From NCBI GenBank assembly GCA_031414535.1, contig JANNVQ010000049.1, positions 1 through 64,000 of the forward strand: a DNA stretch of 64,000 nucleotides, given 5' to 3'. Below are positions 24,001-33,000 of the stretch, one piece after another (within the stretch, counting starts at the first letter, position 1; each line of letters starts with the position of its first letter). Made by a program: the position numbers. This stretch comes from Gemmatimonas sp. (GTDB lineage: Bacteria > Gemmatimonadota > Gemmatimonadetes > Gemmatimonadales > Gemmatimonadaceae).

Positions 24001-27000
24001 CTCGCGAACACAGGCGGTATAGAACGGATGGATCGCCGCAACAACCTGTGAGTCGAGCGCCGCGTACAGCTCACGCCATTCGCGCGTCGGCACCACTGGG
24101 CCAGCAGCGAGTCCCATCGGCTCAAGCATCATCGCGATGCCCATCGGGTCGGCCGGGAACATCTCACCCAAGAGCGTCACCGTCGGCTTCTCGCTCTTGC
24201 CACCGCGCGGGGCGGCCACAGGTCCGAGCTCCGCTTCGGTGCGCGCATACTTGAGCATTGCGCCAGCCAGCACGTCCTTGGCTTCAGCATGGGTGGGCAC
24301 GCCAAAGCCAGGGACATCAATGCCGATGATACGTACGCCGTTGATCTCCTTGGGTAGGAGCTGCAGCGGAACGCCGGATGCCGTCGGCACACAAAGATTC
24401 GTGATCACAATCGCGTCGTAGAGCGCCGGATCAGCCGTCTTGTACACAGCGTCGCGAATGTCTTCAAAGAGCTTGCCCGTGACGAGCGACTCTGAGTTGA
24501 AGGGCACGTAGCCAACCGTGCGGCGCGCGCCATAGAAATGCGAGGTGAACGTCAGGCCGTACACGCAGCAAGCCGAACCAGAGAGAATGGTCGCCGTGCG
24601 GCGCATGCGCAGCCCTACGCGCAGCGAACCAAACGCCGGGCACATTGACTGCGGCTGATCGTGCGGACCCTTGGGATAATCCTTGGCGTACTGATCCAAG
24701 GTCTCGCTCTTCCCCGCGGCTCGTGCCGCGTTGAGAAGCTCTTCCTTGCCCGAATGACACCCCACACCGTCGCTCGTGAGAGCGGCCGTGTTAGCGATGA
24801 CGGGGAGCGGCGTAGACATTAAATCAGACCGTGTCGTAAACGACTTCGAGTGACGGCTTCGTGATATCGTTGCGGCCCACCATGTCAAACGTCGTCGCCG
24901 GCTGCAGCACGACGTGGCGGCCTACGACATCTCCAGCGAACAGGCCCAGCAGCTCATCCTGCGACAGCGGCTTCGGACGCACCGGCGGCGCTTCACCAAC
25001 ATTCGTCGCCAGCGTCTCAAACATCGGGCCCCACTGCGTCCCGGGGATGCCGACGATCTCGTAGTTGGCGCTCTTACGGCGAATGTCTTCGTGCGCTGGG
25101 ATAGCCGCGAGAATCGGAATCCCGGCCTTCTCGGCGAACGCTGCGGCTTCGCCGGTGCCGTCATCCTTATTCACCACCATGCCCGCCACACCAACGTTGC
25201 CACCGAGCTTGCGGAAGTATTCCACCGCCGAGCACACGTTGTTGGCCACGTAGAGCGACTGCAGGTCGTTGGAGCCGACGACGATGACCTTCTGGCACAT
25301 GTCGCGGGCAATCGGCAGGCCGAAGCCGCCGCAGACCACGTCGCCCAAGAAGTCGAGCAGCACGTAGTCAAAGCCCCACTCGTGGAAGCCAAGCTTCTCG
25401 AGGAGTTCAAAGCCGTGGATGATGCCGCGTCCGCCGCAACCGCGGCCGACTTCCGGGCCGCCCAGTTCCATGGCGAACACACCGTCACGCTTGAAGCACA
25501 CATCAGAGATGGTGACTTCTTCGCCGGCCAACTTCTTCTTGGAAGAAGTTTCGATGATGGTCGGGCAGGCGCGGCCGCCGAATAGCAACGAGGTCGTATC
25601 AGACTTGGGGTCGCAGCCGATGAGCAACACCTTCTTGCCCTGCTGCGCCATCATATAGGAGAGGTTGGACAGCGTGAAGCTCTTGCCGATGCCGCCCTTG
25701 CCGTAGATCGCGATGATCTGCGTTTCTTTCTTTACACCAGTCGTCGAGACCGGGGTGGGCTCTGCGTGTGCTTCGTCACGAAGACCACGATGCAGCTGCA
25801 CCAGCGCGTCGCCCTGCGGGTTGTTCTCAATCACGAGATTGTGCTCCAGTCGAGGACCATCTTGAGGCAGTTCGGATCATTGAATGCGGCGCGGTAGGCA
25901 TCTGCGGCGCGTTCGGCGGGGGAGATATTTGTAATGAGTCCATCAAGCGACAGCGAACCCGCCGTCACGAGGTCCAACACGCTGGCGAGGTCACCGGGTG
26001 ACCACTCGGCGGCGATCCGCAACCGCGCCTCCTTCATGAAGGCAGGCGGAAACGCAAACTGAATGGGCGTCGAGTAGAAGCCGGCGAGCACGATCTCGCC
26101 GCCCTTCACGAGGCGGAACATCAGCGAATCGAGCAGCGAAGCGTCGCCGCTCGCGTCGAAGATGCAGGCGTAGTCGCGGCGCGTATCGGCGTCGCTGGTG
26201 AGCACGGGATAATCCGTCGCGCCCGTCATCCGCTCAGGCGTCCGCTCCCACACCGTGGGCGCTCCACCAAGCGCGCGCGTGATGCGCGCCGTCAAGCGGC
26301 CAAACACCCCGTGCCCGATGATGAGATCAGGAAGCACGGCACCAGCGCGGATGGCGTGGTAGGCCGTAGCGCCCAATGCCAGCAAGGTCGCCCGCTCGCC
26401 CAACGCGGCATCAACCGGAATCACGCGCGCCGCAGGGGCTACCACCGTATGCGAGGCACCACCAAACAGGCCGCGCACTTCGCCGTAACAATTGGCGCCC
26501 GGCACAAACACTGAGGTGCCAACACTCAGGCTCGCGTCCGGTCCCGCTTCTATAATACGTCCCACCGACTCGTAACCCGGCACGAGCGGGTAACCGAGTC
26601 CGGGGAACGGAGGCATACGACCTTCCCAGAGAAGCCGCTCAGTGCCCGCGCTGATGGAAGACCACTCAATCTGCACCACGACGTCACCAACACCCGGAGA
26701 TGCAAGATTCAACTCGCGCAGCGCGAGCTGCTGAGGAGCGTCGAAGACCACAGCGAGTGACTTCACCTGCGAACGGGGCACTGCACACTCTGGTATTGAG
26801 TAACGCAAACTTGACGGTTTACATTGTCAACCGAAGCTGACACCACATAAAGTGTGATGTGGAGCGCCGGACGTCAAGATGGACTTTCAAGGAATTTTCA
26901 AGCACCCCATTTTCGAGATATGAGCCTCTTCCGAATCCTCGTCGCCGCCCACATTGCCACCGGCGCCGTCGGCCTTTTCCTCTTCTGGGTGTCCGTCCTC

Positions 27001-30000: not shown

Positions 30001-33000
30001 GGCCGGCGGCACGCCGAAGTAAGCGGTGCGGCTTCCTAGCCACTGTTGCCAGCTCGGCGCCGTGCTCAAGTCCGGCAACTGCCAGAGCCAATGCTCGGTG
30101 CGAAACATCGCCGGATCCATTGTCAGGTCCCAGGCGGTGAGAATGAGTGCGGCCACGAATGACCACCACCACTTGTTGGCCGCATCGTCACGCGCCGGCA
30201 AGATACGGCCGCAGATGCCGAGTCCGGCCACAAGCAAGTAGAACCACGAGGTCGGGATGTTGAACGGCACGAGTCCAAGGATCAGGAAGCCGAGGCGCTC
30301 GGTGTACACGTACGGGCCGAATGGATAGCCCGTCGTGGTGCCGATGGCTTCTGCCGCGAACGAGAGCACGAAGCAGATGGCCAACGACTGCAGTGTGCGC
30401 CGCCATCCCACACAGCTTGCCAAGAACCACACAGCGGCCACTGCACCGAGTACGACGGTGGTCTGGCCACCGAACTTATAGCTGAAGTCCATGATGGCCT
30501 GGTTGGCGGGACGCCGGAAGAATTCCGGAATCGGCGGCACCAGGAAGGTCGCGAAGGCAACGGCGGAGCCGACGCTAAGTGCGATGTGCGCACGGAGTGC
30601 GTTGCGTACAACGCGCTGCACGCGCTCAGGCCTCGGCGCTGATCAATCCGGCGTACACGGGGTAGCGCGTGTTATGCACCTTGCTGCGCGTGAACCCGGC
30701 ACGCGCGAGCAACGCTTTGAGCTCATCGGCTCGCCGCGCGCGTCCACGCCCCATGGCTCTTAAGTAGAGGCCGAAGTACACGTCCCCCACCGTCTCCGCG
30801 CCGCGCACACCGGAGAACGGCTCCACAATGAGGAGCACGCCTCCGGGTTCGAGCGCCTGCTTCACCTTCTGCAGCAACCTGAGGACCGACTCGTCGTCGT
30901 GATCAAGCAGGATGCGCACTAAGGTGATCACGTCGGCACCGACTGGGAGGGGATCCTGATGAAAGTTCCCCCCGGACAATTCCACCCGCCCCACAATCCC
31001 CAGCCGGGCCAAACGTGCCCGCGCTCCCTCAACAACTGCAGGGAGGTCAAACAACTTCAGTTGCAGGTCGTGATACCTCCACGCGACCTCGGCGAGGAAC
31101 GCGCCCTCGCCACCACCCACGTCGAGTAGGACTTTCCGGCCCGAGAGCGGGTAGCGGTCCAGAATGTCTTCAGCCAGCGGCCGCACGGTGTCGGCCATCA
31201 GCGCGCTGTACTTCTCAGTTACGTCCCGCCCGATATTCTCGGGGTTTGAGACGTTTGTGTACGGAAAGTGTTCTGTTACTGCGCCGTTTCTGTTTTGAGT
31301 TTCGCGGAAAAAGGCGATCGGATCTGCGAGGTCTCGGTACAGCAGCGCATTGTGTTCAATCATCCGGGCGAGGCCAATGTTACCAATGAGCGGAGCGCCC
31401 AAGGGACCACAGCCGTACCGTCCCTCAGACCGCCCCTGCACCAAGCGAAGCGCCGTGGCGGCTCGCAACAAGCGCTCCGTCTCGTCCAGCGGAATCCCCA
31501 TGTGAGCCGCAATTTCCTCGCGCGTCCGGGGACGTACCGCAAGAAAATCAAACAACCCCAGACGAGAGCACGCCGTCAGCGTCTGCGTATAAACAAACCC
31601 AGCGGCTAGATCAAACACCTCGCGCGACCGTCGCAAGGCGATGGGCCGCATCAAGGGAAACGAGCCGGCGAATCGCTGGAACTTCTCGTTCGACTGAATC
31701 GCATCGCGCCAGGCGAGAACGCGATCCCACAGACTCAGGGACACACGCTCCTCACGCATCGAGGCCGCAGCAATCGCCGACTCCTTCATTACCATTAATG
31801 ACCGCCGGAATGAGCTCTCCAAACCCGATCTCCCCGAGATCGCTCAAGGGGACTCCAATACGAGCGAGAATAAGACGAACCACCGAAAGTGTCAAGCCTT
31901 CGGTACATTTGGAGTGTCAGGGGATTGCGACACGAAGAGCCCTTCTGTACACTCCCCCTGACACCCTCCCCCCGGAGACCGTCGTGCCTGTCGCATTCCC
32001 CTTCTCGGCGATTGTCGGGCAGGAAGAGATGAAGCGTGCGATCCTGCTCACCGCCGTTGACCCTACCATTGGTGGGGTGCTCATCCTCGGCCATCGCGGG
32101 ACCGCCAAGTCCACCGCCGTCCGCGCCCTCCCGGCGCTGTTGCCGGCCATGCACGTCGTGCGCGGATGCCGCTACGGCTGCGATCCCGACGCCGGCAATC
32201 GGCGCTGCGACGACTGCAAGGCACGCGAAGCCGCGGGCGAAAAGCTCAAGCACGACAAACATGCCGTGCCTGTCGTGGACCTCCCGCTCGGCGCCACCGA
32301 GGACCGCGTCGTCGGTGCACTCGACCTTGAGCGAGCCCTCACGCGTGGCGAAAAGGCATACGAGCCTGGCCTGCTCGCGCGCGCCAACCGCGGCTACCTC
32401 TATGTAGATGAGATCAATCTCCTCGAGGATCATCTCGTGGACCTGCTCCTCGACGTGGCGGCCACCGGCGAGAACGTCGTAGAGCGCGAAGGCATTTCCG
32501 TGCGACACCCGGCGCGCTTCGTGCTCGTGGGCTCGGGCAATCCCGAAGAAGGCGATCTACGTCCGCAACTGCTCGACCGCTTTGGACTCTCCGTCGAAGT
32601 CACCACCACCACCGATCTCGACGCCCGCGTAGAAGTCATCAAGCGCCGCGACGCGTTTGATCGCGACCCCGAGGGCTTCACGGCCAAGTGGGCGGACGCG
32701 GACATGGAAGCGCGGAAAAAAATCGAACGCGCTCGCAAGAAGATGGAGCAGCTGAAGGTGCCAGACTCCATTCTGCGCGCTGCCGCACAACTGTGTTCGG
32801 CCGTGGGCACCGATGGTGTGCGCGGAGAGCTCGCGCTCTTGCGTGGCGCTCGTGCACTCGCGGCCTTCGACGCTGCGAAGGCCGTCACCATCGATCACCT
32901 CCGCACGATTGCCATCTCCGCACTCCGGCACCGTCTGCGTCGCAGCGTGCTCGACGACGTTGGCTCCAGCGTGCGCGTGGAGCGTGCAGTGACCGAGGTG

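Follow-up and report, generated by a model that had tools for sequence, protein, structure and literature searches.

Carotenoid methyl groups are converted to carboxylic acids by CruH in synechoxanthin and by CrtNb/CrtP plus AldH in C30 acids. In the double-ring photosystem of Gemmatimonas the main antenna carotenoid is gemmatoxanthin. It bears a 19′-oxo group and a 16-oic acid, and the enzymes that introduce them are stated to be unknown (PMC8342508). CruH-like genes, found as tblastn matches of 23–37%, are the published guess, and a cytochrome P450 is nowhere mentioned (PMC8342508). Carotenoid methyl oxidation in purple bacteria is an open gap, and CrtA, which acts on acyclic carotenoids, is a haem enzyme that needs O2 and introduces a carbonyl group (PMC10604819).

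The bchC–crtF insert

The window (the whole stretch of 64,000 nucleotides that was analyzed) contains five genes inserted between bchC (25831..26808, minus strand; TIGR01202, 422 bits, over the cut-off) and a gene for a crtF-type O-methyltransferase (30626..31822, minus strand; PF00891). These encode U249 (g02622; 26920..27669, plus strand), a DUF2306-like seven-helix membrane protein of 249 residues; a small, accessory membrane protein of 124 residues (g02623; 27666..28040, plus strand); an intact cytochrome P450 of 460 residues, a candidate carotenoid methyl oxidase (g02624; 28037..29419, plus strand); U104 (g02625; 29426..29740, minus strand), a three-helix membrane protein of 104 residues and the third conserved member of the module; and a CruF-family carotenoid 1,2-hydratase of Gemmatimonas type (g02626; 29737..30621, minus strand). 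The five reading frames and their flanks agree with the first-pass annotation, as does its claim of a second cruF, the other copy lying on contig C31 and being more distant (36%). Since the reading frames are conserved across phyla and have GC3 values of 0.78–0.84, chance or shadow ORFs were ruled out. Four phototrophic relatives have crtF and bchC adjacent, without the insert.

The cassette CruF scores 155 bits against PF04240 (cut-off 25), which places it in the family, and 130 bits against the NCBIfam equivalog NF045693, below the cut-off of 400. CrtB and CrtI are encoded on contig C31. Neither crtD nor crtC was found in G000, leaving the 3′,4′-desaturation needed for gemmatoxanthin unexplained.

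The genes crtF, cruF (g02626) and U104 are probably one transcript. A sigma-70-like promoter facing U249 (26824..26853, plus strand), in a region shared with the divergent bchC, is overlapped by a palindrome (26825–26842) of the form TGT-N12-ACA, which we take to be the PpsR consensus. Three further PpsR-type palindromes (31890–31907, 31915–31932 and 31946–31963) lie in the divergent crtF/bchI promoter region (31867..31963). The motif is not enriched across the whole window (10 occurrences, 7.8 expected), and such a box is present at 6 of 10 cluster-type loci (0.5 expected), 8 of 39 divergent loci and none of 20 clpX-type loci. The cassette may be under PpsR-type control. In Sediminicoccus KRV36 a trio matched to the module by gene order, size and overlap rather than by sequence (LHU95_14555/14560/14565) lies 100 kb outside the photosynthesis cluster and is light-repressed like crtC, crtD and pufL, a response not shared by the three other P450s of this strain. 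Light repression of the module genes was not seen in Gemmatimonas phototrophica.

The P450 and the small membrane proteins

The P450 belongs to the P450 superfamily (PF00067, 229.5 bits; gathering score 22.8) and has an AGHET motif (A271–T275) with the I-helix acid–alcohol pair, the ExxR residues E327 and R330, and the haem ligand C407. These positions, together with F400, G403 and G409, are invariant in 48 of 48 P450 sequences. By sequence, the closest solved structure is the plant carotene ring hydroxylase CYP97A3/CYP97C1 (E 1.6e-48). Membership of a P450 family requires at least 40% identity to a member, and the 22–26% identity to CYP97A3/C1 in Foldseek alignments places g02624 outside CYP97. 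In the fold search the fatty-acid-binding CYP184A1 ranks first and CYP97 ranks 2–4, with BM3 beside it; the protein is thus no nearer to CYP97 than to fatty-acid P450s.

An AlphaFold model of U249 (pLDDT 92.8) has seven long helices, as first annotated. The four histidines then described as invariant (11, 35, 68 and 179) are so within the P450-linked clade (79–80 of 80 loci), while among 63 sequences of the wider family only H11, H35 and H179 never vary. H68, together with FGWMM at 85–89, is specific to the P450-linked clade, and is placed in a loop in the model, the other three histidines lying within helices. No Pfam family is matched over its cut-off, as had been claimed, but a weak likeness to DUF2306 (PF10067) is discernible: U249 scores 11.9 bits (gathering cut-off 31.6), and 23 of 44 family members give weak matches covering helices 1–2 (best E 4.4e-5). 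Fold searches returned generic helical bundles with nothing significant (best VIA-align Z 10), Dcytb being a weak match at rank 27 (E 0.38, TM 0.35). A profile search of PDB sequences gave nothing, and a plasmid search a single distant match (24%). U249 is a probable haem protein.

The accessory protein g02623 matches no family over cut-off in profile searches and is limited to some Gemmatimonadota loci (9 of 80, plus L107, L109 and L110), where it always lies between U249 and the P450. U104 is of no known family, and an atlas search gave no usable match.

Gene neighborhoods and phototrophy

The P450 is found at 71 of 80 U249 loci, and at each of the 45 that are flanked on either side by 2 kb or more. 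The members of the conserved two-gene module proposed in the first-pass annotation are nevertheless separable. G144, G257 and G272 have the P450 without U249, and in G509 U249 adjoins crtC–crtD with no P450. Since four genomes hold the genes apart, U249 need not be the redox partner of the P450, and an obligatory partnership was down-weighted. The association with carotenoid genes was upheld: crtI is present at 48 and crtD at 35 of the 80 U249 loci, versus no crt, bch or U249 match at 76 P450-paralogue loci. The latter come from a metagenome scan with the crtA-type P450 (four close loci and 76 paralogues), which served as a control only. U249 lies immediately upstream of crtD in many loci, Pseudomonadota P450s adjoin a true crtD, and some module loci have bch genes as their only neighbors. 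The idea that these crtD neighbors are special, CrtNb-like oxidases was rejected, because the five tested all pass the ordinary NF045637 cut-off. An ATP-grasp gene adjoins the P450 at 29 of the 80 U249 loci. G257 and G272, both without U249, have crtA–P450 operons. CrtA was not found in any of eight U249 carriers tested (G000, G055–G059, G330, G509), nor in G783; a search of G000, G054, G055, G060 and G061 was also negative, its positive control G272 giving a match.

With Photo_RC as reaction-center (RC) marker and a P450 threshold of E<1e-90, the earlier counts for the host's own genus were reproduced exactly: among 54 other genomes, 16 have the P450, 22 have Photo_RC and 15 have both. The P450 is thus present in 15 of 22 RC+ (seven without) versus 1 of 32 RC− genomes, and the Gemmatimonas-type cruF occurs in exactly its 16 carriers. 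In the genus Gemmatimonas, the P450 is present in 48 of 57 RC+ (nine without) versus 6 of 30 RC− genomes, and 51 of the 54 carriers have U249. A search found bchH in two of the six RC− carriers; the module is intact in G074 and G106, where neither RC nor bchH was found. All these counts come from related genomes and are not independent. Four RC−/P450− Gemmatimonas genomes keep crtB-cruF-crtI-tig-clpP-clpX without U104, the P450 or U249, and the locus of RC− G087 has decayed to fragments of the P450 and U249, with U104 gone. Among 21 sampled RC+ Alphaproteobacteria (seed genome excluded), the P450 occurs in two and U249 in one. The module is a minority trait among alphaproteobacterial phototrophs, and its description as an accessory of aerobic anoxygenic phototrophy was too wide.

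The gemmatoxanthin producer G. phototrophica, on which the first-pass annotation left a check open, carries the module. Its P450 (WP_026849544.1; 62% identical to g02624) adjoins a 249-residue hypothetical protein beside crtB-cruF-96aa-crtI, and all are expressed (GEMMAAP_RS12280/12285/12260). G. phototrophica and Sediminicoccus KRV36, for which locus tags are given here, are both cultured. The pair lies 1.3 Mb from the puf genes in Gemmatimonas. A carotenoid structure has been solved for just a single named carrier. The presence of the module in the producer supports it as the best candidate for gemmatoxanthin oxidation, a link not found in print in the open-licence PMC and bioRxiv full texts that were searched.

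The proposed extension to two other pigments was not supported. No P450/U249 pair was seen in the gene table of Porphyrobacter ULC335, where neighbors were viewed for three of six P450s and the pigment (bacteriorubixanthinal type) is named from its spectrum only. Two RC+/CrtY+ alphaproteobacterial genomes have neither gene. Bacteriorubixanthinal, a 19′-aldehyde pigment, seems to form in the absence of the pair. Rhodopinal is made by purple sulfur bacteria, which grow anaerobically; P450s need O2, and rhodopinal was therefore rejected as a product.

Proposed function and comparison with known enzymes

The explanation we prefer, at about even confidence, is that the inserted genes form a cassette for tailoring carotenoid ends, adding the steps that lead on to a light-harvesting carotenoid of gemmatoxanthin type. 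CrtB and CrtI would supply neurosporene or lycopene, one end of which would be hydrated by the cassette CruF and then methylated by the neighboring CrtF. At the opposite end, which is 7,8-dihydro, the P450 would act with O2 on the terminal allylic methyl group (C-16), taking it in three steps through the alcohol and aldehyde to the acid. U249, a putative haem-binding membrane protein, would serve this pathway either as a second missing oxidase (19′-aldehyde) or as a dispensable electron or substrate helper. ATP-grasp enzymes activate carboxylates, and in many Pseudomonadota the adjoining ligase may conjugate the acid. The cassette would have originated in a crt locus of Gemmatimonas type and come under PpsR-type control on its transfer to the photosynthesis cluster. 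As product of the P450, the terminal 16-oic acid is more likely than the aldehyde, because of the ATP-grasp neighbor, the crtA–P450 operons (in whose pathway C-2 already has its enzyme), the pair not being seen in a bacteriorubixanthinal-type producer, and the anaerobic life of rhodopinal makers. If this is right, the module adds a family of bacterial P450s that make acids of acyclic carotenoids, assigns a function to a DUF2306-like protein for the first time, and leads one to expect as yet undescribed pigments in Roseomonadaceae and further phototrophs of aerobic habit.

It is doubtful, by our estimate, that the P450 instead makes the cross-conjugated 19′-aldehyde, or both oxidations, with U249 as a di-haem cytochrome b donating electrons from the quinol pool. 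The module in G. phototrophica and the RC−/P450− loci fit this equally, and the pairing at all well-flanked loci and in most Gemmatimonas carriers, the lack of a ferredoxin gene in the insert and the predicted position of U249 H35 and H179 on the same membrane side are in its favor. It sits poorly, however, with the genomes that have one gene alone and with a bacteriorubixanthinal-type producer in which no pair was seen, and an aldehyde product leaves the ATP-grasp neighbor unexplained. Another carotenoid oxidation (oscillol-type C-2 hydroxylation, a substitute 3,4-desaturation, or the oxidative turnover of carotenoids in the antenna) seems improbable. CrtA and crtD not being found, such steps are without genes here, and among solved P450s a carotene ring hydroxylase comes nearest in sequence; but the non-phototroph G. 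aurantiaca also makes oscillol rhamnosides, 24 of 30 RC− Gemmatimonas genomes lack the P450, and elsewhere it adjoins a true crtD or follows crtA. Least probable is action on a non-carotenoid isoprenoid or lipid belonging to the photosynthetic membrane, such as a phytol/geranylgeraniol tail or quinone side chain, with shared regulation alone placing the module among crt genes. The fold-search ranks of CYP184A1 and BM3 and the loci with bch neighbors only would suit such a role, against which stand the Gemmatimonas pair, far from puf yet adjoining crtB-cruF-crtI, the insert's own cruF (16 of 16 in the host's genus) and the position of U249 directly 5′ of crtD in many loci.

It is tempting to speculate, though we think it rather unlikely, that the cassette encodes both missing gemmatoxanthin oxidases, the P450 giving the 16-oic acid and U249, as a membrane haem oxygenase of a new class, the 19′-aldehyde. 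U249 could then stand in for CrtA, since CrtA was not found in the U249 carriers tested and both CrtA–P450 genomes lack U249. If so, phototrophs of at least the Gemmatimonadota, Alpha- and Gammaproteobacteria would make undescribed spheroidene/spirilloxanthin-type acids, aldehydes and ATP-grasp-ligated conjugates.

Among known enzymes, CruH and CrtNb/CrtP plus AldH perform the same methyl-to-acid oxidation as proposed here, but belong to different enzyme classes from P450s; the published CruH-like candidates, unlike this module, had no link with phototrophy or with crt genes. CrtA (spheroidene monooxygenase, NF045923) adjoins the P450 in two genomes, but is not a P450, has no similarity to U249 that we could find, and acts at C-2. 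U249 resembles DUF2306/cytochrome b561-type di-haem proteins as a histidine-rich helical membrane protein, and differs in its score under the Pfam cut-off, its seven helices and its three, not four, family-wide histidines. The cassette CruF shares PF04240 with known CruF, but is under the equivalog cut-off and is a second copy, in a purple-bacterial cluster without crtC. CYP97A3 (LUT5) and CYP97C1 are likewise P450s tied to carotenoid genes and the best solved match by sequence, although structural-alignment identity is low, CYP184A1, CYP3A4 and BM3 score about as high, and the pathways of module carriers are mostly acyclic. CYP124A1, CYP125 and CYP4F2 are isoprenoid omega-oxidizing P450s that convert a terminal methyl to an acid in three steps, the chemistry proposed for g02624, to which we claim no orthology; to our knowledge, none of this type acts on C40 carotenoids.

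Gene content and layout of the insert

The P450 (g02624) and its partners very probably form a real, well-supported carotenoid-tailoring module of some phototrophs; the reaction of this module is uncertain. All five ORFs placed by the first-pass annotation between bchC and a crtF-type methyltransferase are present in the layout described. U249 (the 249-residue membrane protein g02622), a 124-residue gene and the P450 lie on the plus strand and are joined by four-base overlaps, while the minus strand carries crtF, then cruF and U104 (the 104-residue membrane protein g02625). The P450 is intact and the sole P450 found in its genome (G000). 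In four of the seven related genomes with a reaction centre (RC, scored by Photo_RC) and no P450, those inspected at the junction (G008, G017, G037, and G054), crtF abuts bchC, and the five genes thus represent an insertion. The 16/54 other genomes of the genus with cassette-type cruF (E<1e-90) are precisely those with the P450, indicating that the insert moves as a unit.

A promoter-like site faces U249, and a PpsR-type palindrome (26825-26842) lies across part of it. Similar boxes occur in 6/10 cluster-type and 8/39 divergent loci, where shuffled sequences predict 0.5 and 1.5; the cluster-type box may serve bchC. About 40 kb of other genes divide the photosynthesis cluster itself, with one part at contig C49:76000-107000 (bchH near 92000-95700, puh genes near 85000-89000) and the other at window positions 17782-35561. 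Right after puhE follows a sulfur-handling unit (35637-38160; ArsR regulator, metallo-beta-lactamase/rhodanese fusion, TauE/SafE gene), and a low-GC segment (54369-62860; 0.55-0.60) with Fic, Schlafen-group helicase, Z1-domain, and DUF4420 genes resembles a defence island.

Distribution of the module among phototrophs

The P450 is present in 15/22 Photo_RC-positive versus 1/32 negative genomes of the genus, and in 48/57 versus 6/30 in the genus of Gemmatimonas MAG L025; because kin are not independent, p-values for these counts were given no weight. In the latter genus, bchH was found in two of the six P450-carrying RC-negative genomes. Natural controls provide stronger evidence than these counts. 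In carriers, U104 sits between cruF and crtI, and P450 and U249 between clpP and clpX; the four genomes inspected, out of 24 with neither RC nor P450, read crtB-cruF-crtI-tig-clpP-clpX-lon, with no U104 in the cruF-crtI gap and an empty clpP-clpX gap. At the latter site, G087, a genome without reaction-centre genes, retains decayed P450 and U249 fragments with stops and frame changes (L202:7878-9586) and lacks U104; this remnant is a fossil of lost phototrophy. The counter-case is provided by G074 and G106, genomes of unstated completeness with an intact module in which neither Photo_RC nor bchH was found.

The module is uncommon outside Gemmatimonadota. Of 400 Alphaproteobacteria sampled besides the seed, 21 are RC-positive; the P450 occurs in three genomes (two RC-positive, one bchH-positive) and U249 in one of the 21. 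The 300 Gammaproteobacteria gave two matches at E<1e-90, one being a 37% paralogue. Photo_RC was present in 5/5 named-locus genomes tested. L034, from a record titled Candidatus Kuenenia, is Gemmatimonas-type by gene order and both trees. The contig has probably been misassigned, and the pufM-negative Planctomycetota bin of the first-pass annotation would then be accounted for.

Carotenoid neighbours, U249 and named carriers

Among the best 80 of 384 U249 loci, neighbours are P450 (71), crtI (48), crtD (35), ATP-grasp (29), and cruF (21), and more rarely crtB (17), crtF (11), and crtC (9); all 45 of these loci with 2 kb flanks on both sides contain the P450. No match to crt, bch, or U249 was found in 76 loci of P450 paralogues (31-43%). 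The neighbouring desaturases fall into ordinary CrtI and CrtD. In a quick FastTree phylogeny, which carried long-branch warnings, 48 module P450s form one clade with 11 paralogues outside, and the window P450 clusters with G099, G100, and G142. Their gene order is cruF-U104-crtI-P450-124aa-U249, and a locus of this kind may have been where the cassette came from. Within the genus, G034 carries a more distant module (L106:3997-11759; 57% P450) in which, in contrast to its kin, an ATP-grasp gene is present.

U249 has seven helices, is weakly DUF2306-like and has 1,244 homologues at E<=0.001. All 63 sequences compared from the wider family share H11, H35, and H179; H68 and FGWMM are characteristic of the P450-linked clade. 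The positive-inside rule places H35 and H179 on the cytoplasmic side and H11 and H68 outside, an arrangement that would suit two haems and that fold searches with U249 neither confirmed nor excluded. The P450 occurs without U249 in G257, G272, and G144, the last with a clean gap ahead of clpX, and in G509 U249 adjoins crtC-crtD without a P450 orthologue or ATP-grasp gene; these genomes could be incomplete. Since U249 and P450 separate, and none of nine U249 carriers yielded CrtA, U249 is, from these few cases, better explained as a second tailoring enzyme than as an obligatory donor.

In the available part of PMC9862903, Gemmatimonas phototrophica AP64 has crtB (RS12250), cruF (RS12255), a 96-residue hypothetical (RS12260), crtI (RS12265), tig, and clpP, followed on the opposite strand by a P450 (RS12280, 463 residues) and a 249-residue hypothetical (RS12285), then clpX. 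This P450 (WP_026849544.1, retrieved by name) is 62% identical to the window P450 over 439 residues; the 249- and 96-residue genes match U249 and U104 by size and order only. Expression of the P450 and the 249-residue gene is present and light-independent in the portion available of PMC11406998, which fits the box-free state of clpX-type loci, the AP64 arrangement (PpsR box missing in 20/20).

In Sediminicoccus KRV36, as far as the accessible text and data of PMC10949492 extend, an ATP-grasp gene and a 455-residue P450 gene share 22 bases, and a 247-residue hypothetical runs divergently from them. The trio, about 100 kb from the photosynthesis cluster, has the layout of Roseomonas loci and is the module's putative counterpart, matched by layout and size. 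On dark-to-light shift (log2 at 2 h/4 h), the P450 (-2.3/-2.0, FDR 0.005) and hypothetical (-2.0/-2.1, FDR <3e-6) decrease, as do crtC (-1.5/-1.9), the cluster desaturase (-2.1/-2.8), and pufL (-2.0/-5.1); the ATP-grasp gene decreases at 2 h only (-1.3), and the three remaining P450s show no decrease (PMC10949492). Further named P450 carriers are Falsiroseomonas tokyonensis, F. frigidaquae, F. stagni, and Dankookia rubra, for which no pigment structures were found.

Candidate reaction and relation to known enzymes

Gemmatoxanthin, the G. phototrophica antenna carotenoid, carries two oxidations on a spheroidene skeleton. Three points, none of them proof, favour assigning the acid, rather than the other oxidation, to the P450. 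ATP-grasp ligases activate carboxylates, and their gene directly adjoins the P450 in most Pseudomonadota loci, which argues for an acid product; it is missing from Gemmatimonas-type loci (none in G055), and gemmatoxanthin is itself a free acid. The P450 lies behind crtA in G257 and G272, an order that speaks against its being the C-2 enzyme. Such crtA-P450 operons lie in photosynthesis clusters of marine Alphaproteobacteria (L112:8884-11108, G257; L113:8698-10864, G272; L119-L122) and predict an oxidised spheroidenone (acid); we know of no such pigment. The main red pigment of Porphyrobacter ULC335 has a bacteriorubixanthinal-like spectrum in the part available of bioRxiv 2023.09.27.559767. 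The accessible part of PMC10674011 gives this strain six P450s, none inside the cluster, and the three with visible neighbours have no 250-residue hypothetical beside them. There, a 337-residue hypothetical adjoining crtC in the cluster (KVF90_15680) shifts with crt genes in a BChl-less mutant, and is a candidate for a separate 19'-aldehyde enzyme for bacteriorubixanthinal. The P450/U249 pair, unseen in ULC335, is also missing from two RC-positive genomes with CrtY over cut-off, which again points to the acid. Rhodopinal was rejected as product, its makers being anaerobes, which a P450 cannot serve. The genes for rhodopinal are described as unknown in the available section of PMC10604819.

The whole G000 genome yielded one CrtI-family gene, in the housekeeping locus L091 (C31:8921-15911; crtI-crtB-cruF-tig-clpP-clpX), and no crtD, crtC, or crtA; with neither crtD nor crtC found, the 3',4' double bond is left without a gene. 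The Gemmatimonadaceae carotenoid 3,4-desaturase has no obvious gene, and CrtI may be bifunctional.

In the open-licence literature, no report tying a P450 to these pigments or naming these loci was found; PMC11271474, PMC3338782, and PMC12654162, as far as available, provide background. Carotenoid P450s are a known kind of enzyme; the novelty lies in this particular P450 family, in its partner genes and in the chemistry proposed for them.
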